This document shows, in pieces, positions 2,442 to 63,713 of a stretch of DNA of 64,000 nt. The notes below the pieces were generated by a model, which was given only the letters and a program-made list of their open reading frames with translations, did no database searches and was not told the DNA's origin. This DNA is from Candidatus Levyibacteriota bacterium (GTDB lineage Bacteria > Patescibacteriota > Microgenomatia > Levybacterales > GWA1-39-11). The stretch spans positions 313,773 to 377,772 of the forward strand of contig DAIQMY010000001.1 in NCBI GenBank assembly GCA_036788695.1, read 5' to 3'. The position numbers and the translations under genes are program-made. How positions within the stretch are numbered: position 1 is the stretch's first letter; the number at the start of each line of letters is the position of its first letter.

Positions 2442-3410
2442 ATGATAGTTATTAGGGACGCGCAGATGAAGGATTATTTGTGGTACAAAATTGGTGGAAG
2501 CGCTCGTTATCTGCTGCAATGCTTTTCTGAAGAAGACATAGTTGAAGCTTTTGAGTTTATAAAAAAAGAAAAAATTGAGACCTATTTTATAGTAGGTATG
2601 GGCTCAAATCTTCTTTTCACTGATGGATACTTTGACGGTGTAGTTATACAAATAGTAATAGATACGCAAGGCTCGGGAATTACTCTCTTAGATAAAGAAA
2701 CAATACAGGCATTTTCTGGGGTGGAGCTCGACTCTGTAATTCAGTTTGCTTTTGAGAATAACCTATTGGGATTGGAGTGGGCGGGTGGATTACCTGGTAC
2801 TGTCGGAGCAGCGATTAGGGGAAATGTTGGAGCATTTGGAGGTGAATTTAAAGACTGTTTTAAGGCAGCGCGTGTTCTAGTTTACAATAAGAGAACATAT
2901 AAAGTTTTAGAGTTAAATAAGCGGGATATAAAATTTGCGTATAGGACAAGCACAATAAAAAAACAGAAAAATATGATTGTGCTTTCTGCCACATTTAAAC
3001 TTAAAAAAGTTGATGATAAAAAGTTAGGATGGGGGAAGCAAACATATTTTGCAAATATAGAGTACCGAAAGAGTAAGCATCCAATGGATTTTCCCTCAAC
3101 AGGATCTGCATTTAAGAACATAAACAACCCAGAGAACATAGAAAAAATACTAACTGTTTTTCCTGATATTGAATCTGATGTGAGAATCAAATGGCATGGG
3201 AAGGTGAGTATGGGATATCTCAATAAGCGTCTTGAGCTTTCGGGCTTACAAATCGGTCAGGCTCATATCTCAAATAAACATAGTAATTTCATTGTGAATT
3301 TAGGAGGTGCGACTGCGTTAGATGTTCTATCTGTAATAAAAAAGGTGCAGGAAACATTCCAAGAAACATTTGGATTTATTCCTGAGCTTGAAGTAGAGAT
3401 AGTATCGTAA
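2442..3410 (+). CDS. murB: UDP-N-acetylenolpyruvoylglucosamine reductase
   Basis: FAD-binding PCMH-type N-terminal region (IGGSARYL...GMGSNLLF). C-terminal MurB region (GSAFKN...HSNFIVNLGGATA.DVL). Confidence 0.7.
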   Translation: MIVIRDAQMKDYLWYKIGGSARYLLQCFSEEDIVEAFEFIKKEKIETYFIVGMGSNLLFTDGYFDGVVIQIVIDTQGSGITLLDKETIQAFSGVELDSVIQFAFENNLLGLEWAGGLPGTVGAAIRGNVGAFGGEFKDCFKAARVLVYNKRTYKVLELNKRDIKFAYRTSTIKKQKNMIVLSATFKLKKVDDKKLGWGKQTYFANIEYRKSKHPMDFPSTGSAFKNINNPENIEKILTVFPDIESDVRIKWHGKVSMGYLNKRLELSGLQIGQAHISNKHSNFIVNLGGATALDVLSVIKKVQETFQETFGFIPELEVEIVS

Positions 3411-3443
3411 AAAACTTAAAAAGCCAACCTGAGCATATAATCT

Positions 3444-4247
3444 ATGAGTTCTAAAAAATATAAATTATTAATTTCAGACTATGATGGAACCCTTTCTGGT
3501 CCTGAGTTTGCTATTCCTGATAAGACAGCTCACGCGATTAAAAAATGGATGTCAACCGATCACTTATTCTCAATCGCTTCCGGAAGGCAGTACCTTATGC
3601 TTAAAAAAGACTGTACTTTGCTGGACTTGTCTACCCCACTCATTGTTAGGGGAGGTGCAGAGATTGTGGATCCAAAAAATGATAACATTATCTTTCAAGA
3701 GCAAATACCTAAAGAGACAGTTGCTGAAATTTTTAAAATTTTAAAAAAACACACTGATAAAATCGCGCTTGAAAAAGATGATACAATTTTTTCTTCCTTC
3801 AAATTCGCAGGCGATTTTCCTGAAGTAAAAAGAAAGAGTCTTGATGAGTTCACGATTACCTCCCTTCCTAAAATAGTGGCGAAGGCAGATCACAAGAAGA
3901 GTGGAGAGTTAGAGATAGTGATGGATAGCATAGTAAAAAAATTTCCAGAACTACACATAGTAAGAAGTTATACTCCCCTAGGATCTGGATATGATATAAC
4001 CTCTATTAAGGCAACAAAACATCTTGCCACTCTTGAATTGATAAAATTATTGGGATTATTCCCTGAAGATGTTATAGGGGTAGGAGATGGATATAATGAT
4101 TTTCCACTTCTTGAGGCATGTGGTTTAAAGGTTGCTATGGAAAATTCCCCGGATGAGCTGAAGGCTATTGCGGATATGGTAATTCCTGCGCAAAGAGAAG
4201 AAGGGGTGGCATTTCTTATCGAAAAACTCCTGAAAGAAGAAGGCTAA
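3444..4247 (+). CDS. HAD-superfamily hydrolase, Cof-like (subfamily IIB)
   Basis: Motif I LISDYDGTL. Motif IV GDGYNDFPLL. Confidence 0.7.
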   Translation: MSSKKYKLLISDYDGTLSGPEFAIPDKTAHAIKKWMSTDHLFSIASGRQYLMLKKDCTLLDLSTPLIVRGGAEIVDPKNDNIIFQEQIPKETVAEIFKILKKHTDKIALEKDDTIFSSFKFAGDFPEVKRKSLDEFTITSLPKIVAKADHKKSGELEIVMDSIVKKFPELHIVRSYTPLGSGYDITSIKATKHLATLELIKLLGLFPEDVIGVGDGYNDFPLLEACGLKVAMENSPDELKAIADMVIPAQREEGVAFLIEKLLKEEG

Positions 4248-21179: not shown

Positions 21180-21731
21180 TTGATATATATGAAATTAATC
21201 TTAATAGGTATACAAGGAAGTGGTAAGTCTACACAAGGAAATATACTCTCCGAGAGATTGCATATACCCTATCTATCTTCTGGGCATATATTTCGTGAAA
21301 TGGCAAAAGAGAAAACTCCATTGGGTCGTTATATTAAAGAGACCATGAATGCAGGATTTTTGATCCCAGATGACAAAACACTAGAAATAGTTATTGAGTA
21401 TTTAGGGCGTTCAGAATATCGGGATGGTTATATTCTTGATGGATTTCCTAGAACTGTTCCACAGGCTGAAGCATTTCCAAATGGAGTAGAAAAGGTAATC
21501 TATCTGAGGGTGACTGATAAAGAGGCATTATGGAGATTAGCCGGTCGCGATGAGGAAGGAGTACGTGAGGACAACACATTGAAAGCTATTTTGAAGCGCA
21601 TAAATGAATTTCATACGAAAACAGAGCCTGTAATTGAATACTACAGGGAAAAAGGTAAACTACTTGAGATAAATGGGGAGAGACACATAGAAGAAATTGC
21701 CTCTGAGATACTTTCAGATATTCAGAAATAA
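21180..21731 (+). CDS. adk: Adenylate kinase (short-LID type)
   Basis: P-loop IGIQGSGKSTQG. NMP-binding GFLIPD...ILDGFPRT. Start may be ATG 21189 (MKLILIG). Confidence 0.85.
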   Translation: MIYMKLILIGIQGSGKSTQGNILSERLHIPYLSSGHIFREMAKEKTPLGRYIKETMNAGFLIPDDKTLEIVIEYLGRSEYRDGYILDGFPRTVPQAEAFPNGVEKVIYLRVTDKEALWRLAGRDEEGVREDNTLKAILKRINEFHTKTEPVIEYYREKGKLLEINGERHIEEIASEILSDIQK

Positions 21732-22301
21732 ATGATAAAACCTCAAATTGTAGGCATTACAGGAGCGTTTGGAAGTGGAAAATCTACTGCTTCTGATTTT
21801 ATTACCTCATTTGGATATAAGAAAATAAGATTATCGAAGTTTTTAGAGGATGAGCTCTTGTCTTCAGGAGATGTAGCTATAACTCGTAAGAAGCTTCAAG
21901 ATCTTGGTAACTCTTGGCGTAATGAGCATGGAAGCGGAGTACTAGGGAAAAAAGCAGTTGAATTTATTTTCACAAACAATGTTGAGAAAGTGGTTGTAGA
22001 GGGTATTCGAAATATTGAAGAGGTTCAAGAATTAAAAAAAATAGGTAAGGTGACTTTAATTGCGCTTATGGTTGATAGAAATGTTAGGTATAAGAGGTTA
22101 GAAAAGTTGACGAGAAGAGAAAAATTAACACCTGAATTATTTGAGAAATTAGACGCACGAGATTTGGGACTGGGGGAGAGTAAGTCTGGATTACAAACTG
22201 CTCTCTGTATCGCGTTATCAGACATATACATACAAAATAATACAAACGAGAAAGAGTTATGCGCTAAATTAGAAAAAGTGATAGCTGAGATTGAGAGGTA
22301 A
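21732..22301 (+). CDS. P-loop nucleotide kinase, CoaE/dNMP-kinase-like (paralogue 2)
   Basis: IVGITGAFGSGKST Walker A near N-terminus. 189 aa. Family assignment uncertain. Confidence 0.5.
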   Translation: MIKPQIVGITGAFGSGKSTASDFITSFGYKKIRLSKFLEDELLSSGDVAITRKKLQDLGNSWRNEHGSGVLGKKAVEFIFTNNVEKVVVEGIRNIEEVQELKKIGKVTLIALMVDRNVRYKRLEKLTRREKLTPELFEKLDARDLGLGESKSGLQTALCIALSDIYIQNNTNEKELCAKLEKVIAEIER

Positions 22302-22334
22302 TAAAAGAGATTTTTTAGTAACTATATTTTAAAA

Positions 22335-22907
22335 ATGAAAAACATATATGTTTTAATAGGGCCGCCATTATCCGGGAAGGAAACACAGGGAGAGTTATTG
22401 GAGACTTCTTTAGGAGGAATTCCAAGATTTTCAATGGGACATCTAATTCGTGAGGCAAGAAGTAAGGATCAAAGATTTGAAAACGCTTATCAACAATATA
22501 GTATGCAAGGGAAGCATTTACCCAATGAAATAAAATTTCCGCTTTTAGTAGATGAGATGAATAAGGCAAGTCAGTCTGGTTTTATTTTGGATAATTTTCC
22601 TGCAACAGAAGAAGACGTGGAATATTTAGAGAGATATCTTGCGGGAAAAGATTTGAATATGAAAACTGTAATTGTGTTAAATGTTTCAAGGGATGAAATG
22701 AAAAAGCGCTTTGAAATAGCAAAAAACAGGCGAGGTCGTGCAGATGATACAATTGAAAACATTGTTGATAGAAGAGAAATCCAAGATAGTGATCGTATGG
22801 CAGTGCTTAATCATTATGAAAAGATGGGATTGTTGAGGATGATTAATGGGGAGCAGTCTGTAGAGAAAGTTCATCAGGACATATTAAGGGAGATTGATCA
22901 ATCATAA
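22335..22907 (+). CDS. Adenylate/UMP-CMP kinase-family NMP kinase (paralogue 3)
   Basis: IGPPLSGKETQG P-loop. GFILDNFPAT NMP-binding. RRGRADD LID-like motif. Confidence 0.6.
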   Translation: MKNIYVLIGPPLSGKETQGELLETSLGGIPRFSMGHLIREARSKDQRFENAYQQYSMQGKHLPNEIKFPLLVDEMNKASQSGFILDNFPATEEDVEYLERYLAGKDLNMKTVIVLNVSRDEMKKRFEIAKNRRGRADDTIENIVDRREIQDSDRMAVLNHYEKMGLLRMINGEQSVEKVHQDILREIDQS

Positions 22908-52527: not shown

Positions 52528-53013
52528 TTATTGTATTCCCTTAAAAGTTACGATGTCTCCTTTTTTTATGTTATTTTTCTTAACTTCCCCCGCGTTTACT
52601 TCTAGAACATAATTTGAATCTTCTGAAGGTTTATAGATAGGAAGTGCTGCAGTATTTTGTTCTTTGCTTGGAGCTTTTGCATTTTCGACTATATCTACAA
52701 TCTTGGTATCGTTTATAAATAATATATCAATCGGGAATTTCATATTTTTCATCCAAAATGCAGGTTTTGATTTTTCTTGAAATATAAATAACATGCCTGA
52801 GTCATTTGGGAGACTATTTCTGTCAGATAATCCTTTTTGTTTGTCTTTTTCTGTTTTGACCACAATAAGTTTGTATGTCTTATTTTGAATCGTAGCTGTT
52901 GTACTGCTACTTCCGCCTCCACCCCCAAAATTGAGAAAATTTGTTCCGCGAGTAAGCATAAATATGATAACAACAATTACTAGTAAACCGTAAAACAGTA
53001 AGACTTTTTTCAT
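52528..53013 (-). CDS. DUF192-family protein (membrane-anchored)
   Basis: N-terminal TM, Gly/Ser linker, then GMLFIF...FWMKNMKFPIDILFI...YVLE motifs of DUF192. Confidence 0.55.
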   Translation of the reverse strand: MKKVLLFYGLLVIVVIIFMLTRGTNFLNFGGGGGSSSTTATIQNKTYKLIVVKTEKDKQKGLSDRNSLPNDSGMLFIFQEKSKPAFWMKNMKFPIDILFINDTKIVDIVENAKAPSKEQNTAALPIYKPSEDSNYVLEVNAGEVKKNNIKKGDIVTFKGIQ

Positions 53014-53513
53014 TTTAGCTCCTTCTTTTTTCTGATCAGGTCTGTTGTAGAGTATTGGGGAAGGCGGTCAATTACTTCAACTATTTTTCCTCCTACCATT
53101 TTTGCCTGTTCCACTTTTTTATTATAGGCAGGATCTCCTGACGTGACAGCAATTATATCAGGTTCTATTTTTTTTACAAGATCGTAATACTCTAGGTCTT
53201 TCTTTAATTCTGGAAGCAGGAGAATGTAATCTACACATTCAATCTCACTAAGAATTCGTGCTCGCTTCTTCTGTGTATTAATTGGTCTTTCACTACCCTT
53301 CCATTTTTTAATAGATTTATCGCTTTCAAGGAGTATCAGGATTACATCTCCTTGTTCTTTGGCCTTTTTGAGAAACAGAATATGTCCTTCATGAAGAATA
53401 TCAAAGCACCCGCCCACAAGTACTAATTTGCCTCGGGATTTGACTTGACTCAATTTGTTTGGCAGAGTATCTTGTGTAATTATTTTATCCATGTGCTCTT
53501 GCGTAGTTCTCAT
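53010..53513 (-). CDS. Cytidylyltransferase-like nucleotidyltransferase (RfaE domain II/TagD-like, HxGH)
   Basis: LVGGCFDILHEGHILFL (HxGH). ~165 aa. Confidence 0.65.
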   Translation of the reverse strand: MRTTQEHMDKIITQDTLPNKLSQVKSRGKLVLVGGCFDILHEGHILFLKKAKEQGDVILILLESDKSIKKWKGSERPINTQKKRARILSEIECVDYILLLPELKKDLEYYDLVKKIEPDIIAVTSGDPAYNKKVEQAKMVGGKIVEVIDRLPQYSTTDLIRKKKELK

Positions 53514-55039: not shown

Positions 55040-56461
55040 ATGGATCCTAACAATTCAAACCCACAAACACCACAGCCTATACCTGTACAGCCTGTTTCAA
55101 CGCCTCAGCCACATATAGAACATGAAGAGGGTGGAGGAAAGCGTAAAATAGTAAGTATAGTTATTGGACTTGTCGTATTAATAGTAATATTTTTATTCGT
55201 TTTTCTGGTGATTATTCCAAAATTTTTTTCCAAGAATAATAATCCTGTAACTCTTACGTATTGGGGTTTATGGGAAGAGCCTTCAGTCATGAATCAAATA
55301 ATCGCAGATTTTAATAGAGAATACCCAAATATAAAAGTAACATATGAGCGACAGGATATTAAGGTGCTAGGAAAATATATTGACAGATTGCAAACTCGCA
55401 TTGAAAATGGGAATGGTCCGGACATATATAGATTTCATAATAGCTGGCCTTTGGAGTTAAAGGGTTATCTCCTTGCGCTCCCAAAAGATGTTGTTGATTC
55501 TTTGGAGTTGGATACGCAATATTATGATGTTATAAAAAAAGATATAAAGATAAACGGCGCATATTATGGAGTTCCGCTAGGGATAGACACTTTAGCACTT
55601 TTTTACAACGTAGATTTATTTAAAGCGGCTGATATTGCTCAACCACCTTCAAGCTGGAACGATCTAACAGATATAGCTGCAACACTTACCGTACCCGATG
55701 AGGAGGGAAAGATTAGAACAGCAGGTATTGCATTGGGAACATATGATAATATCTATCACGCATCAGACATAATATCTTTATTATTCGTTCAAAATGGTGC
55801 GGACTTATATAATTTGGCGGGTCCCACAAAACAAAATGCTATTGATGCATTGGGGACATACTACACATATTTTGCAAAAGGGGATGAAGCAGGCAGGGGG
55901 AAGACATGGGATTCAGGCATGGAAAACTCAAAGCTCGCGTTTGCAAACGGCAAATTGGCTATGTACTTTGGATACTCATGGGATATATTTGAGATAAAAG
56001 GAAAAAATCCAGATCTAAACTTCAAAGTGACACGAGTGCCCAATTTGCCTCCAGACAGAAATCAAACAATAGCGTCTTATTGGGTCGAGGGCATTTCTTC
56101 AAAGACAAAGCACCCAAAAGAAGCCTTTATTTTCTTAAAATACTTGGGGAAGAAGACAACGCTTGAGAAATTATATACTCTTGAATCAAAAACACGTCTT
56201 TTTGGAGAACTTTACCCAAGACGCGATATGAAATCGCTTCTTGCAAATAATCCGCTTCTGATCCCATTCCTGGAGCAAGCGGATAGGGCAGTTGCGACAC
56301 CATTCTCATCTGATACATACGATGACGCAATGAACTCAGCACTAAATACATACTTGGGGAATGCTGTAAATTCAATACTTAATGGGGCATCTCCCGAAAC
56401 CGCGATTGACACTTTGGGTGCTGGAGAAACTCAGGTACTGCAAAGATATAATTTTCAATGA
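55040..56461 (+). CDS. Extracellular solute-binding protein (ABC-type, family 1), TM-anchored, orphan
   Basis: Start ATG 55040 (MDPNNSNPQ...). N-terminal TM helix. SBP_bac_1-like body. No permease/ATPase genes nearby. Confidence 0.65.
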   Translation: MDPNNSNPQTPQPIPVQPVSTPQPHIEHEEGGGKRKIVSIVIGLVVLIVIFLFVFLVIIPKFFSKNNNPVTLTYWGLWEEPSVMNQIIADFNREYPNIKVTYERQDIKVLGKYIDRLQTRIENGNGPDIYRFHNSWPLELKGYLLALPKDVVDSLELDTQYYDVIKKDIKINGAYYGVPLGIDTLALFYNVDLFKAADIAQPPSSWNDLTDIAATLTVPDEEGKIRTAGIALGTYDNIYHASDIISLLFVQNGADLYNLAGPTKQNAIDALGTYYTYFAKGDEAGRGKTWDSGMENSKLAFANGKLAMYFGYSWDIFEIKGKNPDLNFKVTRVPNLPPDRNQTIASYWVEGISSKTKHPKEAFIFLKYLGKKTTLEKLYTLESKTRLFGELYPRRDMKSLLANNPLLIPFLEQADRAVATPFSSDTYDDAMNSALNTYLGNAVNSILNGASPETAIDTLGAGETQVLQRYNFQ

Positions 56462-57375
56462 AAAAAGAAACATTTAAATATTCTGTATTAAAAACACTTT
56501 GTTATTCGCAGGTATTCTCTTATCCATTAACAATTCATGAGTTATGGAAGTATCTGATAAGTGATAAAAAAATTTCATATCAGGAATTTTTATTGCGCTT
56601 TTATAAAACGCGTCAAGATTTTGAACAGATTGGAGAGTATGTGGTTCTTTTTGGCGATAAACATTTAGTTACGCAGAGACATTCCCGCGCTTATGAATCT
56701 AAGCGCAAAATGGCAAAAGCACACTGGATTAGTCAGTTTTTGTCAGTTATTCCCACGATTAAATTAATCGCGGTTTCTGGCAGTCTTTCTATGTTTAATG
56801 CAAAAAAAACGGATGATATAGATTTATTCTTCATAACATCAAAAAATTCCTTGTGGATTAGCCGTTTTTTAGTTAATTTAATACTTTTTTTCCTTGGAGA
56901 AAAGAGGGGGAGAAAAGAGAAGTATGCTAAGGATAAAGTATGTCCTAACATGTTTATTTCAGAGGACCGTTTAACTATCAGTAAGAAAACTATGTATACG
57001 GCTCATGAAGTGGCACAAATGAAAGTAATTTTTTCAAGAGAGGATGTTGTCTTAGACTTCTTTACCGCAAACAAATGGGTATTAAAATTCCTTCCCAATG
57101 TATTTGTTCTAGGCAAAAAGCATAAGAAAGAAAAAAGTATCCACTCTGGTTTTTTACTTCAAGCGATTGAAAAATTTTTCTACTTTGTTCAACTTCAATA
57201 TATGAAAAAAAGAATTACTCACGAGACTATTAAAAAAGACGTTGCGGCATTTCATCCTATTCAAAATGATAAGATTATCCAAATGCTTTATACATTAAAG
57301 GTAAATACACAAATAAGTATAATACAAGACAAAAATAGGCACAAAAGTAACCACTCAACCACCGTTGTAAACTAA
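56458..57375 (+). CDS. Nucleotidyltransferase-fold protein (Pol-beta/LicD-like GS...DDID motif), function unknown
   Basis: VSGSLSMFNAKKTDDIDLFFI. 4-nt overlap with the upstream SBP gene. Confidence 0.4.
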   Translation: MKKETFKYSVLKTLCYSQVFSYPLTIHELWKYLISDKKISYQEFLLRFYKTRQDFEQIGEYVVLFGDKHLVTQRHSRAYESKRKMAKAHWISQFLSVIPTIKLIAVSGSLSMFNAKKTDDIDLFFITSKNSLWISRFLVNLILFFLGEKRGRKEKYAKDKVCPNMFISEDRLTISKKTMYTAHEVAQMKVIFSREDVVLDFFTANKWVLKFLPNVFVLGKKHKKEKSIHSGFLLQAIEKFFYFVQLQYMKKRITHETIKKDVAAFHPIQNDKIIQMLYTLKVNTQISIIQDKNRHKSNHSTTVVN

Positions 57376-57491: not shown

Positions 57492-57971
57492 ATGGATAAT
57501 AATAATCAAAAGAAAAAAATATTTGTCACGAAAGAAGGATTAGACGAGCTTAAGAGGGAGCTTGAGGAATTGAATAAGGTAAAACGTCCGGAAGTTTTAG
57601 AGCGTGTTTCTGCAGCTAGGGCAATGGGAGATCTTGCTGAAAACTCTGAATATACTGCAGCTCGTGAGGACTTATCTCTTATTGATGGAAGAATAGAGGA
57701 ATTGACAGAGATTCTCAAGAGTGCTGAATTAATAAAAGAAACAGGGAAAGATACAAAAGCTATTCAGCTTGGTTCTACCGTCATTGTTTCAATTGGTGGA
57801 AAAAAAGAAGAATTTGCTCTAGTTGGTGAATGGGAAGCAGATCCTCACAATAAAAAGATTTCACATGAATCTCCACTCGGAAAAGCACTTATGGGTAAGG
57901 CTGTAGGAGAAAAAATAGAGGTAGAAGCACCAGCAGGTACAATCTCTTATACCGTAGTTTCTATTCACTAA
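57492..57971 (+). CDS. greA: Transcription elongation factor GreA
   Basis: Coiled-coil N-terminus with acidic tip (EDLSLIDG). C-terminal FKBP-like domain. Confidence 0.9.
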   Translation: MDNNNQKKKIFVTKEGLDELKRELEELNKVKRPEVLERVSAARAMGDLAENSEYTAAREDLSLIDGRIEELTEILKSAELIKETGKDTKAIQLGSTVIVSIGGKKEEFALVGEWEADPHNKKISHESPLGKALMGKAVGEKIEVEAPAGTISYTVVSIH

Positions 57972-58062: not shown

Positions 58063-59820
58063 ATGTCAGCACATCAAGGAGAAAATTCAATAAAAAAAGA
58101 CATAAGTACTCTTGCGGTAACTCCTTTCATTCAGGACTATAAATCCTTTTATTCGTCTTTTTCGTGGGATGAATCTATTTCATCTATTTCATTTTTTGAA
58201 GATGGTACTCTCAATGCAGCTTATAACGCTGTAGATAGGCATGCAAAGGAAGGTAAGGCTGAGCGGGCTGCTCTTTTGTGGGAAGGTAGTACTGGAGAAA
58301 AAGAGACATATACATACTCAGATCTTTCAAAAAAATCCAACCAATTTGCAAATGTTTTGACATCTTTTGGTGTGGGTAAGGGGGACCGTGTTTTTGTTTT
58401 TCTTCCAACAATTCCAGAGCGGTATATAGCGTTTTTAGGTATTTTAAAAACAGGAGCAATTGTGGGAACTCTTTTTTCAGCATTTCAGGAATTAGCCCTT
58501 TTAGACAGGCTTTCTGATAGTGGAGCAAAGATTGTTATAACAAATGAAGCACTATATCCTCGTATTCAGAAAATAGAAAAAGATCTTCCTTCTCTTGAAA
58601 AAGTAATTATAGTTGAGCGGGGAAGCGTTGCTCATCCTCAAGGTGACCATATTGCATCTTTTGAAAGAGAAATGGAAAAGGCTGCAGTTAGTTTTGATGT
58701 GGCACACATGAAGAAGGAGGACTATTCTTATATGCTTTACACATCTGGAACGACAGGAAAACCTAAGGGAGTTGTTCACTCTCACTTTGATGTGCTACAG
58801 GCAATGTTAACTACAAAGTATGTCCTAGATTTACACGATGATGATATTTATTGGTGCACAGCTGATACAGGATGGGTAACTGGAGTTGTATATGGGGTGT
58901 TAGGACCTATGTGTCTTGGCGTTACATCTGTTATTTTTGAAGGAAGATATAGTCCTACAGCTTGGTACACAATACTTCAAGATTACAAGGTTACTGTTTG
59001 GTATACAGCTCCTACTGCAATAAGAATGCTTATGGGGTCAGAAGTACAACCAAAGAATTTTAATTTGTCTTCTCTTCGGGCACTTTTTAGTGTGGGTGAA
59101 CCGCTGAATCCGGAGGCGATTTGGTGGGGGCTTGAGGCGTTTGGGCTTCCATTTCACGATACCTGGTGGCAGACGGAATTGGGCGGAATGGCAATTGTAA
59201 ACTATGTATCAATGGATATTAAACCAGGAAGTATGGGAAAGCCTTTTCCCGGAATTGTTGCGTCAGTGGTAGATGAGAATGGAGAAGAAGTAGAACAAGG
59301 CAAGATTGGCAGTCTTGTTATAAAGCCTGAAACTGACCCATCACTTATGGGAGAGATTTGGCACAATAAGGAAAAATTTGATTCGTACTTTAAAGACGGA
59401 TGGTATGTTTCAGGAGACAAAGCATATATTGATAATGATGGCTATTTTTGGTTTGTTGGGCGGGCAGATGATCTCATAAATACTCAGGGAGAAAGAGTTG
59501 GACCGTTTGAGGTGGAAAGCGCACTAGTTGAATATCCAGATGTTGTTGAGGCAGGTGTCATAGGAAAGCCAGATGAGATGCGGGGTGAAATAATTAAAGC
59601 CTTTGTTGTCCTCAAGCCAGGTATAGAAGGGACAGATGAGCTAAAGGAGAAAATTGCACAACATGTGAAGAAGAACTTAGCGGGTCATGCATATCCACGA
59701 GAAATTGAATTTATTGAGAAGCTTCCTAAAACAAGATCTGGGAAAATAATGCGAAGGCTCTTGAAGTCTCGCGAATTAGGTTTACCTGAAGGTGATACTT
59801 CAACCCTTGAGGACTATTAA
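58063..59820 (+). CDS. AMP-forming acetyl/acyl-CoA synthetase
   Basis: AMP-binding signature YTSGTTGKPKGV. Acs-like C-terminal PKTRSGKIMRR (acetylatable Lys motif). Confidence 0.85.
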   Translation: MSAHQGENSIKKDISTLAVTPFIQDYKSFYSSFSWDESISSISFFEDGTLNAAYNAVDRHAKEGKAERAALLWEGSTGEKETYTYSDLSKKSNQFANVLTSFGVGKGDRVFVFLPTIPERYIAFLGILKTGAIVGTLFSAFQELALLDRLSDSGAKIVITNEALYPRIQKIEKDLPSLEKVIIVERGSVAHPQGDHIASFEREMEKAAVSFDVAHMKKEDYSYMLYTSGTTGKPKGVVHSHFDVLQAMLTTKYVLDLHDDDIYWCTADTGWVTGVVYGVLGPMCLGVTSVIFEGRYSPTAWYTILQDYKVTVWYTAPTAIRMLMGSEVQPKNFNLSSLRALFSVGEPLNPEAIWWGLEAFGLPFHDTWWQTELGGMAIVNYVSMDIKPGSMGKPFPGIVASVVDENGEEVEQGKIGSLVIKPETDPSLMGEIWHNKEKFDSYFKDGWYVSGDKAYIDNDGYFWFVGRADDLINTQGERVGPFEVESALVEYPDVVEAGVIGKPDEMRGEIIKAFVVLKPGIEGTDELKEKIAQHVKKNLAGHAYPREIEFIEKLPKTRSGKIMRRLLKSRELGLPEGDTSTLEDY

Positions 59821-60482
59821 TCTATTACGTTGTTTGTGAATAAAGACTCAAGGATTGAAAATGCTTTATTCACGTCTTTTTTGTTTACCACAAAAGTAAA
59901 TTCCAAGTGTGCTGAAACAATTTCAACTATGTTAATTCCTTCCCAGGCAAGCGATTTTAGAAGTGAGTAGAGTATTCCTGGAGAATGAATTGAGCTTTCT
60001 GGTAGTTGAATTGTGATAGAGGAGAGGTTATTAATTTTCTCTGTTATTTTTTCATTATCTAGTATGCTGCATGCCTTCTCCTCTATATCGTTACTAATTA
60101 TAATAGATGTTTCAAAGACTCCTTGGGTGACGGTTAGAAAGTATTTAGCTTGACTATCAGATAACTGTAAAAGAGTAGGGAGTATTTTCGGTAAAGATTG
60201 TGAGTTTAGGACAACTATTTCCGAAAGATTTGATTTTAATGTCATGTTAGGTGGTGCAGTAAATATATCTGTAGATTTATAGTTTGGCCTGATTGTTGTG
60301 GAAAGTCTATTCAACGCCATGATAAGTGATGCTTCACTTACTGTTTTTTTAGTAAGTTGTTCTACTTCTGGTTGAATATAACGTGCAAGAGCTGAAAAGT
60401 TAATAATTCCTTTAGAAATAGCCTCAGAAAGATATCTGGAGCGCGAAATGATAATCTCAACTGCAGAAGATATGCTAACCAT
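59817..60482 (-). CDS. Tandem ACT-like domain protein (aspartokinase regulatory-domain-like), hypothetical
   Basis: C-terminal PGILYSLLKSLAWEGINIVEIVSAHLEFTFVV resembles an ACT beta-alpha-beta-beta-alpha-beta unit. An upstream half resembles a second unit. Confidence 0.35.
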   Translation of the reverse strand: MVSISSAVEIIISRSRYLSEAISKGIINFSALARYIQPEVEQLTKKTVSEASLIMALNRLSTTIRPNYKSTDIFTAPPNMTLKSNLSEIVVLNSQSLPKILPTLLQLSDSQAKYFLTVTQGVFETSIIISNDIEEKACSILDNEKITEKINNLSSITIQLPESSIHSPGILYSLLKSLAWEGINIVEIVSAHLEFTFVVNKKDVNKAFSILESLFTNNVID

Positions 60483-60537
60483 ATTTTGTTAAAATTTTAA
60501 CACAATATATATAATTTGTCAATATTTTATAGAAAAT

Positions 60538-60566
60538 TGACATACTATAGGAACCTTCGTATACTT
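60538..60566 (+). promoter_or_regulatory. Sigma-70-like promoter for the GNAT-like/HDAC-like/PPAT-DPCK cluster
   Basis: TTGACA (60538-43), 17-nt spacer, TATACT (60561-66). Confidence 0.5.
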
Positions 60567-60601
60567 GCTTTATCAATTCAGCTATACATTATAATAAATG
60601 T

Positions 60602-61666
60602 ATGACTGATACAAGAGATATGGGAAAAGAAATAGTTTCAAGCACTGGGCGTATGGGTATAGATACCCGATCAGACAATAGATTTTATTGGAATGTGAGG
60701 CAACCAATGCATGATGCAAGCAGGGTTGAAAAGGGGTTTGATAGGCTTGCGCAAGTAAAAAATATAAAACCTTCTCGAGAGAACCAGTTTGATTTTCTTG
60801 ATTCCTCAAAGAGACGGGATGTTATGAGATTTATTGCAACTGGAGAAGTTGCAGAGCAGCTAATTAATCCCAGCAATCCTTTTTCTGGAAATGTAGAGGT
60901 TGCTTTTCCGATTTCGGATGGTGATTGGTATATAAGCCTGGGTAGAAACGGAGAAGATAGAAAAACGGCTCTTTCTATGGATGAATTAATTCAGGAGACA
61001 GCTGTGCCTGACAGGCAAAATTATCCAGCAGCAGCAGTGGAAAAGGTGTTGAAGGAAGGGTACTCGTTTAGGACAGACCTTTCAAGCCCTCAAGTGCGGG
61101 AACAAGTATTAGGATTATGGGATAATACTTTTGGTTGGACAACGGAAGAGATTTGTAATTTAGAAAAAAGTTTAAAGGAGCAGGAGAAAACTGGAGAAAA
61201 GAATGTATGGTTCAGTGCTTTGCAAAAGCCTATTTTAAAAGATAAAGTAGTTGTCGCAGTCGGTATGGCGGAGAAAATCAAATTTACAAGAAGTAATGGT
61301 AGACCAATTGATATTATAGAATTAACTGAATGGTCTGTAGATGAAGGAAGTCGTGGGAATGGATATATGCCTGCAACGGTAACTCAATTAGCAGCCCAAG
61401 TGTTAGATTCATACCCCATAGAAGAGAGAAAAAGAGATATCTTACTTATAGCAGAGTGCAATATTGGAGCGTATGCTCATAAAACAGGTTACAAGGCAGG
61501 ATTAACAGTACCTGAAAGAGTTGTTCCACAAATATTGAAACAGAATGTAGATGTAAATGGTATTTCTTCAGACTTTGCCTTTATGTATATTTCTCCATCA
61601 TCTCTTGCAAAAAACTATCCACCAGAGGTGGTAAAACAAATATTAAGAGATACTGAGGTAAAGTAA
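60602..61666 (+). CDS. Hypothetical protein with C-terminal GNAT-like acetyltransferase motifs
   Basis: SRGNGYMPATV (motif A-like) and NIGAYAHKTGYKAG (motif B-like N-x2-A-x3-Y-x-K-x-GY). N-terminal ~200 aa unassigned. Confidence 0.4.
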   Translation: MTDTRDMGKEIVSSTGRMGIDTRSDNRFYWNVRQPMHDASRVEKGFDRLAQVKNIKPSRENQFDFLDSSKRRDVMRFIATGEVAEQLINPSNPFSGNVEVAFPISDGDWYISLGRNGEDRKTALSMDELIQETAVPDRQNYPAAAVEKVLKEGYSFRTDLSSPQVREQVLGLWDNTFGWTTEEICNLEKSLKEQEKTGEKNVWFSALQKPILKDKVVVAVGMAEKIKFTRSNGRPIDIIELTEWSVDEGSRGNGYMPATVTQLAAQVLDSYPIEERKRDILLIAECNIGAYAHKTGYKAGLTVPERVVPQILKQNVDVNGISSDFAFMYISPSSLAKNYPPEVVKQILRDTEVK

Positions 61667-61667
61667 T

Positions 61668-62630
61668 ATGAAGTTTCCTATTATCTATTCTTCCCAACAC
61701 AAACAACACGCTCCGTTATTTGAGATATATGACGATGTGAAAGAGGAATATTCTGAAAAGCCTGCGCGGATTGAGACAATTAAAGAAAAACTTGAACAAG
61801 AGAATGCGGGGCAATTTTTTTCTCCTTCTAAGTTTCCCTTGGATCATATAAAGAAAATACATCATTATGCGTATATAGATTTTCTGAAGAATCGTTCAAG
61901 ACTTTTAAAAGAAAATGAAGTTTTATACCCTTCATATTTTATAACTGATACGTATATTGCAATTACCCCTGGAACATACGATGCAGCTGTCGAGTCTGTA
62001 AACATAGCACTTACTGGTGCACAGAAAGTACTTGATGGTGAAAAACTTGTCTACTCTCTTTGTAGGCCTCCAGGACACCACGCAGAAGAAAGAAGTATGG
62101 GTGGATATTGTTTCTTTAATAATGCAGCAATCGCGGCAAATTTCCTAACTCAAAAGGGTAAAGTTGCTCTATTGGATATAGATTTCCACCACGGAAATGG
62201 AACGCAGCAAATATTTTATGAGAGAAGCGATGTTTTATATGTATCTATTCACGCTGATCCAAAAGAAAAATATCCATATAAAACTGGTTTTATGGATGAA
62301 AGCGGGAAAGGAGCAGGAGAGGGTTTTACCGTAAATTATCCATTGCCACTTGGCGTAACAGATATTAATTACATGTCAGTACTGAAAGATGCACTTTCCA
62401 AAATCACAGAATTTAATCCTGAATTTATTGTATTATCAGCCGGATTTGATACCTATGAAAACGATCCAATAGGGGGATTCAAGCTCACTGTCCCATTTTA
62501 TGAGGCTATAGGTCAAGAAATAAAGGCGTTAAATACTTCCACTCTTGTTGTGCAGGAAGGTGGATATGCTGTAGATGCATTAGGGGAAATGGCTTACAAT
62601 TTTCTAAAGGGATTATCTTTTACTTCATGA
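61668..62630 (+). CDS. Histone deacetylase-family (AcuC/acetylpolyamine amidohydrolase-like) deacetylase
   Basis: GYCFFNNAAIA, DIDFHHGNGTQ, LSAGFDTYENDPIGG: the three HDAC signature blocks. Confidence 0.85.
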   Translation: MKFPIIYSSQHKQHAPLFEIYDDVKEEYSEKPARIETIKEKLEQENAGQFFSPSKFPLDHIKKIHHYAYIDFLKNRSRLLKENEVLYPSYFITDTYIAITPGTYDAAVESVNIALTGAQKVLDGEKLVYSLCRPPGHHAEERSMGGYCFFNNAAIAANFLTQKGKVALLDIDFHHGNGTQQIFYERSDVLYVSIHADPKEKYPYKTGFMDESGKGAGEGFTVNYPLPLGVTDINYMSVLKDALSKITEFNPEFIVLSAGFDTYENDPIGGFKLTVPFYEAIGQEIKALNTSTLVVQEGGYAVDALGEMAYNFLKGLSFTS

Positions 62631-63559
62631 GATATAGATTGGCTGCATTGGGTGGAACATTTGATAGATTACACCGTGGACATAGGGATTTTCTTCAATT
62701 TTCACTTTCCAAAAGTGACTATGTGGTGTTAGGGCTTACCTCAGATGCTTATATTAAAAAATATAAAGATGGACTTGGAGTTGAACCTTACGAAGCGCGG
62801 GAAAAAAACCTCCAGATATTTTTACAATCGATTCAGAAAGAAAGTAGAGTAAAGATTGTGTCAATTGATGACCTGTTTGGTCCAACAATTTTACCTGAAT
62901 ATAAGTTTGATGCACTTATTGTAACCCGGGACACCATAAAAGGTGGAGAAGAGATAAATAAGAAAAGAAAAGAGATGGGGCTTTCAGACTTATCAGTGGA
63001 AGTTTTTTCTTTAACAAATGAAGTTTACGGTGTTCCGATTGCATCTTCAACAATACGAAAAGTAATTTTTGCTCTTCCCGCAAGTCTACGTTTTCTACTT
63101 CAGGAGCCATGGGGAAAAGTAACTGAGAAAGTTCCACGCAATATAGAATCGGAGAAAACTATTACTGTAGGGGATGTAACTACAAAAATGTTTTTAGATC
63201 AGGGGATACATCCCAGACTTGCAATAATTGATCTCTATATAGAGCGGGAGTACGCTGTTAAAAAAATTGAGGAATTAGGTTTTTCTAGTAGTCAACCCGT
63301 AGTGTATGTTAAGAATCCTGCTGCAACTATTACCCCCGAATTAGTAATTGCTATCCGTGAAGCACTTTTAAGCAACGAAGATTCACTTATCATTGTTGAG
63401 GGAGAAGAGGATCTAGCGGTTTTGCCGGCTTTGCTTGAGGCGGATAATGGGTATTCAGTTTTTTATGGGCAGCCAGGTCAAGGGATGGTAGAGGTAAAGG
63501 TAAATGATAAAGTTAAAAAGAGTGCGCAGGATTTACTCGCCAAGTTTGACAAGAAATAA
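62627..63559 (+). CDS. Fusion: archaeal-type phosphopantetheine adenylyltransferase (N-terminal) + DUF359-like GTP-dependent dephospho-CoA kinase (C-terminal)
   Basis: N-terminal LGGTFDRLHRGH (HxGH cytidylyltransferase). C-terminal VGDVTT...IVEGEEDLAVLPA, reminiscent of archaeal DPCK (DUF359). Confidence 0.55.
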   Translation: MRYRLAALGGTFDRLHRGHRDFLQFSLSKSDYVVLGLTSDAYIKKYKDGLGVEPYEAREKNLQIFLQSIQKESRVKIVSIDDLFGPTILPEYKFDALIVTRDTIKGGEEINKKRKEMGLSDLSVEVFSLTNEVYGVPIASSTIRKVIFALPASLRFLLQEPWGKVTEKVPRNIESEKTITVGDVTTKMFLDQGIHPRLAIIDLYIEREYAVKKIEELGFSSSQPVVYVKNPAATITPELVIAIREALLSNEDSLIIVEGEEDLAVLPALLEADNGYSVFYGQPGQGMVEVKVNDKVKKSAQDLLAKFDKK

Positions 63560-63656
63560 ATCCTTTGGTAACATGGATATACAAATGAAATTTCTAACCA
63601 TCCTCAAGAAGATTAAGAAAACCCCATAGGGGCTAGATCTTTTTGTGAGAGAGCTA

Positions 63657-63681
63657 GACCCCGAGCAATCGGGGTTTTTTT
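63657..63681 (+). terminator. Rho-independent terminator
   Basis: CCCCGA-GCAA-TCGGGG followed by T7. Preceded by a second hairpin at 63623-63632. Confidence 0.75.
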
Positions 63682-63713
63682 GTGTCTCAAAACTATAAGA
63701 AAGGAGGGTAAAA

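Follow-up and report, generated by a model that had tools for sequence, protein, structure and literature searches.

A candidate reversible-acetylation gene pair in a cluster for acetate activation and coenzyme A synthesis from Levybacteria

Introduction

Do bacteria of the Candidate Phyla Radiation (CPR) control acetate activation by reversible acetylation? The question is raised by a gene cluster in a 64,000-nucleotide stretch of DNA from a Candidatus Levyibacteriota bacterium (the window, with a low GC content of ~36%). The cluster encodes an acetyl-coenzyme A synthetase (Acs), an ACT-domain protein, a GNAT-like protein of 354 residues (here called X), a zinc-dependent deacetylase of the HDAC family (the HDAC), and a fusion of phosphopantetheine adenylyltransferase and dephospho-coenzyme A kinase (PPAT-DPCK). 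All of their open reading frames (ORFs) were found at the coordinates given below. The original prediction, made from the DNA letters, saw here an AcuA/AcuC-like switch physically linked to coenzyme A (CoA) synthesis. A GNAT/HDAC writer–eraser pair next to Acs, together with an ACT protein, is already known from Bacilli. New here are the non-orthologous parts, a new domain in X, an HDAC subfamily that resembles the acetylpolyamine amidohydrolases (ApaH) without their loop, and the occurrence of the pair across the CPR; a literature search found no description of the X family or of X–HDAC pairing in CPR bacteria.

The gene structure, the folds, the intact catalytic motifs, the obligate pairing of X with the HDAC and the recurrent linkage to Acs, ACT and CoA genes are observations. 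The explanation that we favour, with evenly balanced confidence, is a CPR-specific module for reversible N-acetylation, an analogue of Bacillus subtilis acsA-acuABC assembled from non-orthologous parts; in this genome its target would probably be Acs.

Pairing of X and the deacetylase

In the window, X is encoded on the forward strand by an N-terminal domain (residues 1–150, 60602–61051) and a GNAT acetyltransferase domain (residues ~150–354, 61052–61666). A spacer of 1 nt separates it from the HDAC gene (320 residues, 61668–62630, forward strand), the stop codon of which is overlapped by 4 nt by the PPAT-DPCK gene (310 residues, 62627–63559, forward strand). The close coupling of X and HDAC that had been proposed is thus real, with a spacer of 1 nt and not of 2 nt.

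Loci for comparison were gathered by exact look-up of X homologues, by pattern scans of GTDB genomes and metagenomes, and by an independent start from HDAC homologues; the proteins of the window were then mapped onto them by tblastn. This yielded 32 distinct loci from Levybacteria, Daviesbacteria, Woesebacteria, Blackburnbacteria, Saccharibacteria/Saccharimonadales and unclassified Patescibacteria. The HDAC lies directly downstream of X in 31 of the 32, with a median spacer of 1 nt; the spacer is 25 nt or less in 27 of these 31 pairs, and 12 pairs overlap. The pairing holds whichever partner is taken as the starting point, for each of the five loci found HDAC-first carries a gene of the X family immediately upstream. 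The universal unit is X plus HDAC. The sole exception is locus L022 (2800–3600), where an M23-like ORF follows X in place of the HDAC; the predicted assignment to M23-type metallopeptidases comes from HxxxD ... HxH-like motifs read by eye. An M23 gene follows the HDAC in L015 as well.

Other members of the cluster are more loosely attached: the ACT protein is present in 13 of the 32 loci (usually divergent and directly upstream of X), Acs in 10, PPAT-DPCK in 6 and an aspartate kinase reduced to its catalytic domain in 2. Conservation of the cluster consequently applies to X and HDAC and only in part to Acs and PPAT-DPCK, and lysyl-tRNA synthetase (LysRS) joins the pair in 11 loci. The Acs linkage takes at least four layouts: Acs, ACT (reverse strand) and X, as in the window and its relatives; Acs directly ahead of X (L030); Acs–CoA_binding_2–PPAT/DPCK–X (L019); and X–HDAC–Acs in a Saccharimonadales genome (L034), where Acs is 63% identical. 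The position of PPAT-DPCK also shifts within the neighbourhood in Levybacteria-like loci. A linkage to Acs and CoA synthesis that is rearranged yet retained argues for selection.

Some loci deserve separate mention. In L013, X is split by a frameshift into a 276-residue protein and a second fragment (1538–2493 and 2515–3516), and this copy may be decaying, differently specialised or a sequencing error. L013 and L009 belong to GTDB bins titled 'uncultured Gammaproteobacteria bacterium' and carry a typical CPR-type X–HDAC pair on short contigs (4.8 and 5.2 kb), which are probably mis-binned. Downstream of X–HDAC in L015 (3784–7863) are genes for a homocitrate-synthase-like enzyme, an ACT protein, an M20 deacylase (ArgE/DapE/LysK-like) and an enolase-superfamily protein resembling L-Ala-D/L-Glu epimerase, a neighbourhood with an amino-acid, lysine-related flavour.

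The acetyltransferase X

X is identical to an entry from a metagenome-assembled genome, 'hypothetical protein PKA38_01870 [Candidatus Levybacteria bacterium]'. Whereas profile searches of the neighbouring proteins recovered Hist_deacetyl, archaeal PPAT and DUF359 as had been expected, X matched no Pfam or NCBIfam family at E<=0.1; its best Pfam GNAT score (PF13527, 12.4 bits) lies under the gathering cut-off of 25. The family as a whole comes closer, with 18 of 74 relatives reaching a Pfam GNAT model at E<0.01 (best 5.4e-9). The GNAT-like character that had been proposed is borne out by the fold and the CoA-binding loop: X follows the GNAT order beta1-alpha1-alpha2-beta2-4-alpha3-beta5-alpha4-beta6-7, and the pyrophosphate-binding loop fits the pattern Q/R-x-x-G-x-G/A as R251-G-N-G254-Y-M. 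This RGNGYM loop (residues 251–256, 61352–61369) lies between strand 4 (235–246) and helix 3 (256–270), and its G-x-G is the consensus across the family. Further conserved residues of the domain are E240, T242, E243, W244, E285 and N287.

The N-terminal domain is an alpha/beta domain to which no fold could be assigned over residues 1–150, in line with the earlier remark that this half of the protein has no recognisable domain. It carries invariant or near-invariant residues throughout the family (S14, G16, G19, R23, R27, R72, E99 and N116) and could represent a new type of domain for sensing or recognition.

Word-indexed searching returned 7 relatives of X only, and a wide-profile version of this search 3 further proteins only, whereas an exhaustive profile search retrieved 260 cluster representatives at E<=1e-3 and 140 at E<=1e-30 (clusters counted at 50% identity). 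The members are nearly all full length (320–420 residues), and organism names, where given, are those of Patescibacteria only. X is therefore a member of a sizeable family without a Pfam or NCBIfam model. Descent from an AcuA-like enzyme finds no footing. An hhalign comparison of the 74-sequence X profile with AcuA (structures 9g7f_C and 2q04) gave a probability of 1.7% with 35 columns aligned over motif A only; PDB sequence searches with X and with a 7-sequence X profile returned chance matches only and no AcuA; and the C-terminus of X has no RLRFYHRYMY-like tail.

The deacetylase

The second gene of the operon was predicted to be an HDAC-family deacetylase, and this holds. The protein matches Hist_deacetyl (PF00850) at 2.5e-78 and carries RPPGHH, DIDFHH, the second Asp ligand and EGGY; the catalytic and zinc motifs (HH, DxH, D and the Tyr of EGGY) are invariant across 24 orthologues. 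An assignment to arginase/agmatinase was rejected, as Hist_deacetyl is the sole Pfam match at E<=0.1 and the catalytic and zinc-ligand motifs are complete.

The predicted kinship with AcuC, in contrast, does not survive. The closest solved relatives are ApaH proteins: PsApaH 9gkz with 267 bits (residues 89–316 are ~57% identical to it) and M. ramosa ApaH 3q9b with 252 and 6phr with 245 bits. Single HDAC6 domains score ~135 bits, and AcuC/class I-like proteins ~100 bits (HDLP 1c3p 100.8, HDAC1 100.9). The cluster-4 polyamine deacetylases are defined by an extended L2 loop that confers polyamine specificity and, via an R95–D163 salt bridge between subunits, brings about head-to-head dimers (PMC11532494). 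The present protein differs at both places: its residues ~75–89 (61890–61934) correspond to ApaH 84–121, with ~23 residues deleted, and the equivalent of D163 is Arg (R/K in the orthologues). The short L2 loop is kept in 23 of 24 orthologues. Because these residues are missing at L2 and D163 is replaced by Arg, the HDAC appears to lack the feature that restricts ApaHs to polyamines, and it is best described as an ApaH-related core without that feature and not as AcuC-like, a cluster placement made by bit scores and not by a tree. For PsApaH itself, acetyl-Lys peptides and the acetylated AcsA of B. subtilis are reported as further substrates (PMC11532494).

The subfamily is abundant, with more than 7,000 matches at E<=1e-40, of which the top 120 are all at least 54% identical, and every source that names an organism is a CPR lineage. 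The HDAC of L013 is the most divergent (40% identity) and alone has a 15-residue insertion at the position of the L2 loop.

The synthetase and coenzyme A synthesis

Upstream of the operon lies the AMP-forming acetate--CoA ligase Acs (585 residues, 58063–59820, forward strand), which scores 817.5 bits against NF003313 (cut-off 729). Its closest solved relative is 9g79 (634 bits), identified as B. subtilis AcsA (PMC11910552), and Salmonella Acs scores ~394. By these scores Acs is of the short Bacillus AcsA type, the type regulated by AcuA/AcuC. The candidate target is K561 (codon 59743–59745, in the PKTRSGK motif) within LPKTRSGKIMRR, a segment identical in all 10 linked Acs orthologues. The lysine motif that had been singled out is thus present and conserved, yet it does not discriminate: K561 is the catalytic A10 Lys, which every synthetase of this kind has, so the motif permits regulation and does not indicate it.

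The third gene of the operon is, as predicted, a fusion of archaeal type. Its N-terminal part (residues 3–145) matches the archaeal PPAT model NF001985 with 128.5 bits (cut-off 104), and its C-terminal part (residues 185–307) matches DUF359 (PF04019) at 7.7e-35 and 119.7 bits (cut-off 25). The match to NF041125, the GTP-dependent DPCK model, is below cut-off (2.3e-26, 92 bits against 300). These matches point to a bifunctional archaeal-type PPAT/DPCK with predicted GTP-dependent kinase activity. The archaeal GTP-dependent DPCK was itself discovered by way of such a fusion, of PPAT with arCOG04076, which is known from uncultured archaea (PMC6650551). A small CoA_binding_2 protein (PF13380) directly follows Acs in L004 (2572–2994) and L019 (8444–8818), so that in some lineages the cluster has one more component related to CoA.

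Two other regions of the window contain possibly related enzymes. A second, stand-alone cytidylyltransferase-like protein of 167 residues (53010–53513, reverse strand; PF01467, 2.3e-15) may, by its family match, be another enzyme of the PPAT or nicotinamide mononucleotide adenylyltransferase type; a similar gene lies near X–HDAC–Acs in L034 (441–998). At 21180–22907, a P-loop kinase of 189 residues lies between two paralogues of adenylate kinase (PF00406, 1.2e-34 and 1.6e-22); its resemblance to CoaE is weak (20.4 bits, with the cut-off at 27). If this kinase were a bacterial-type dephospho-CoA kinase, the genome would hold two unrelated DPCKs.

Control regions and upstream neighbours

The region between the ACT gene and X (60483–60601, 119 nt) contains back-to-back promoter-like sites that each match the consensus at 11 of 12 positions. 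The predicted forward-strand site, TTGACA-17-TATACT, lies at 60537–60565, and the predicted reverse-strand site, TTGACA-17-TAAAAT with a TG extension, at 60522–60494; both are consensus matches only. At the other end, an intrinsic-terminator-like hairpin with a T run (63656–63686, forward strand; 9-bp stem with 5 GC pairs) follows PPAT-DPCK, and the proposal of a promoter-led three-gene operon agrees with these predicted sites. Within 60590–60604, a perfect TATAAT stops 6 nt ahead of the ATG of X, and no Shine-Dalgarno sequence is evident. Besides the transcript from the promoter match at 60537–60565, a leaderless one might also serve for the translation of X.

Upstream of Acs are GreA (57492–57971) and a 305-residue protein (56458–57375), both conserved neighbours in Levybacteria-like loci. 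GreA is present in 9 of the 32 loci; the 305-residue protein matches no family above curated cut-off and shows a weak Polbeta nucleotidyltransferase match (E 0.017).

The ACT-domain protein

The ACT protein (221 residues, 59817–60482, reverse strand) is a candidate sensor or adaptor. It matches ACT_9 (1.3e-6) and ACT_7 (2.2e-5) at residues 153–215 only, and ACT_7 is matched by 10 of 11 family members. A profile of the 11 orthologues retrieved 12 chains from the PDB, all of them aspartokinases (best 3l76, 1.2e-5); several are regulatory beta subunits aligned over ~100 residues. In AcuB, a Bateman domain binds adenosine monophosphate (AMP) or diadenosine tetraphosphate (Ap4A), and the ACT domain docks on AcuC and inhibits it (PMC13121692, PMC13039410). 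The supposed ACT/CBS counterpart of AcuB does not hold up here: the 11 members contain no CBS family at E<=0.1, and the family profile matched no AcuB in the PDB, despite published AcuB structures. What these searches suggest is an aspartokinase-regulatory-like protein that shares with AcuB the ACT fold alone. The conserved N-terminus of ~75 residues gave no match in an N-terminal-only profile search of the PDB; a helix-turn-helix at this end was considered and found no support from Pfam or the PDB profile search.

In L010 (10156–11142) and L012 (5436–6428), a catalytic-domain-only aspartate kinase lies just downstream of the HDAC. Both kinases score 282–288 bits against TIGR00657 over model positions 3–287 of 442, without the ACT region. 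A catalytic-only kinase in some lineages and a stand-alone ACT protein upstream of X in others may reflect split, trans-acting regulation.

Lysyl-tRNA synthetase and allele exchange

LysRS is as frequent a neighbour of the pair as Acs and occurs on either side of X–HDAC, with NCBIfam scores above cut-offs. Seven of the genes are of class I (L002/L007, L005, L009, L016, L019, L023 and L035) and four of class II (L010, L012, L013 and L029). Judging by synteny, a LysRS gene would be expected just past the end of the window, after 63714. LysRS is a classic source of Ap4A. Since Ap4A controls AcuB/AcuC in B. subtilis (PMC13039410), a connection between LysRS, Ap4A and the module is conceivable.

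The comparison with L005 reveals how differently X and its surroundings evolve. Up to 60544 the DNA of the window and of L005 shows 87% identity, and from 61638 onwards it shows 84%, whereas the X genes in between are without detectable similarity. The swapped segment (window 60545–61637, L005 2619–3741) suggests replacement of the X gene together with its promoter as one cassette. At the protein level the two versions of X share 34% identity, and the nearest relative of the L005 allele is P0010 (52%), in another subclade than the X of the window. Mean pairwise identity is 40% among X proteins and 60% among HDACs.

What the pair may do

In the reversible-acetylation module that we favour, the C-terminal GNAT domain of X would acetylate an amine with acetyl-CoA as the presumed donor, and the translationally coupled zinc deacetylase would take the acetyl group off. 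In this genome the pair sits in a cluster for acetate activation and CoA supply (AcsA-type synthetase and PPAT-DPCK), and the likeliest acceptor would be the catalytic Lys561 of Acs. High acetyl-CoA would then switch Acs off and deacetylation would switch it on again. The divergent ACT protein could act as a metabolite-sensing adaptor, after the model of AcuB, whose ACT domain inhibits AcuC. Beyond X being a GNAT and the HDAC being active, these are steps that we infer.

As Acs is of the AcsA type and its linkage recurs in several arrangements, including one in Saccharimonadales, a functional analogy with acsA-acuABC is reasonable for this genome. To that extent the original prediction of an Acu-type module tied to CoA biosynthesis can be kept, although the parts are not Acu orthologues; by analogy, X, HDAC and ACT protein together resemble the Bacillus AcuABC switch, of which they would be a counterpart of independent origin. 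An intact GNAT cofactor loop, a deacetylase with an opened entrance, the coupling of the two genes, the ACT partner and the linkage to AcsA and CoA genes make a switch the best-fitting explanation. Three findings hold our confidence near the midpoint: the enzymes related to the HDAC deacetylate polyamines; Acs is not nearby in most loci, and LysRS is equally frequent; and the evolution of X, with its cassette swap and its lower identity than that of the HDAC, is unusual.

The kinship with polyamine deacetylases would suit a pair that acts on a small molecule, X acetylating and the HDAC deacetylating a polyamine or some metabolite related to lysine, for instance N-acetylcadaverine, N-acetyl-lysine or an acetylated intermediate of the diaminopimelate (DAP) pathway, while Acs recycles the acetate. 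We regard this as unlikely, as the polyamine-specificity loop and the R95–D163 salt bridge are absent in 23 of 24 orthologues and polyamine-synthesis or DAP-pathway genes were seen in none of the 32 loci. Moreover, a co-translated writer and eraser would run a futile cycle unless other steps intervened, and no enzymes for such steps are conserved alongside. The spread of X–HDAC across the CPR with or without Acs nearby would equally follow if the pair wrote and erased a general protein acetylome with many targets, the Acs and CoA genes being linked for acetyl-group economy: deacetylation would give acetate, Acs would turn acetate into acetyl-CoA, and X would use the acetyl-CoA. B. subtilis AcuC is broad in its substrates, and Acs has been proposed to recycle acetate (PMC13039410). 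Among the genes annotated in the window and the loci, neither of which was annotated completely, none is of the Pat or CobB type; the search for other acetyltransferases or sirtuins did not extend to whole genomes. However, the recurrent, rearranged yet retained adjacency of Acs favours a more specific tie, and a conserved 150-residue extra domain with several invariant Arg residues is not obviously needed by a general writer; we think a general role improbable, to much the same degree as a small-molecule one.

The unusual evolution of X and the LysRS neighbours can be read differently again. The system could be of a conflict type or directed at tRNA, X modifying an essential target such as Lys-tRNA or LysRS, much as GNAT toxins acetylate aminoacyl-tRNA, and the HDAC serving as an antidote by undoing the modification. 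Consistent with this, X evolves or is exchanged much faster than the HDAC, its replacement between the window and L005 is clean, and LysRS of both unrelated classes adjoins the pair. A PADLOC probe for a defence or toxin role gave no hits, and we rate such a role as very improbable. Somewhat less remote, but still unlikely, is a lysine-centred CPR system in place of a primarily Acs-directed switch, in which X and the loop-less HDAC would act on LysRS, Lys-tRNA or an amine of the lysine/DAP pathway. The Arg-rich N-terminal domain of X would then recognise a partner or ligand that is anionic, lineages would swap alleles of X as cassettes, and amino-acid status would be sensed by the ACT protein of aspartokinase type, possibly in connection with Ap4A made by LysRS. 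If true, the system would be a new route joining lysine supply, translation and acetyl-CoA in bacteria with minimal genomes.

The CPR or Patescibacteria account for much of the diversity of bacteria. Most of them are uncultured, and very little is known about how they are regulated. A family of ~260 clusters without a model, obligately paired with a distinct and abundant deacetylase subfamily, provides the first concrete candidate for reversible acetylation in these bacteria. If Acs is the target, acetylation control of Acs would have been invented at least twice, with unrelated GNATs, different HDAC lineages and an ACT protein each time. The loop-less ApaH-like HDAC, in turn, offers a natural test of the idea that a preference for polyamine or for protein substrates is set by the L2 loop.

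Comparison with known systems

The closest functional parallel is B. subtilis acsA-acuABC. Both systems have an AcsA-type synthetase with an acetylatable catalytic Lys, a GNAT and a zinc deacetylase encoded nearby in a single operon whose genes are tightly coupled, a small ACT-containing protein, and a shared divergent promoter region. All three Acu parts are nevertheless non-orthologous to X, the ACT protein and the HDAC. AcuA is a single domain of ~210 residues and uses its C-terminal tail to plug the CoA site in AcsA, whereas X has 354 residues and an extra N-terminal domain of 150; AcuC belongs to cluster 2c with the class I-like HDACs, while the HDAC here is ApaH-related; and AcuB is a CBS-CBS-ACT protein with a Bateman domain for AMP or Ap4A, which the ACT protein here lacks. 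The order of genes differs as well: acuB lies between the two enzyme genes and acs is the divergent partner of the operon in B. subtilis, whereas here the ACT gene is transcribed divergently and is itself that partner. A CoA-synthesis gene is part of the operon here, unlike in acsA-acuABC.

The HDAC resembles the cluster 4 ApaHs (M. ramosa ApaH and PsApaH 9gkz) in RPPGHH, EGGY, the zinc and catalytic residues and the position of the Ile gatekeeper (PMC11532494). It is shorter (~320 residues against 341–353), with an L2 loop short by ~23 residues and D163 replaced by Arg/Lys, and it is always paired with a GNAT gene, which sets it apart from the cluster 4 enzymes. In actinobacterial AAPatA, an ACT domain and a GNAT are likewise combined in the control of Acs by acetylation, with an ACT of the amino-acid type as presumed sensor; there, however, ACT is fused to the GNAT and no deacetylase is coupled, whereas here it is a separate, aspartokinase-like protein with an N-terminal domain of its own (PMC6434083). 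Finally, PPAT-DPCK has its counterpart in the archaeal PPAT-arCOG04076 (DUF359) fusion and the DPCK TK1697, with the two domains in equal order and the last two steps of CoA synthesis in one protein (PMC6650551). Here the fusion is found in a bacterium of the Levybacteria, in one operon with an acetyltransferase/deacetylase pair.

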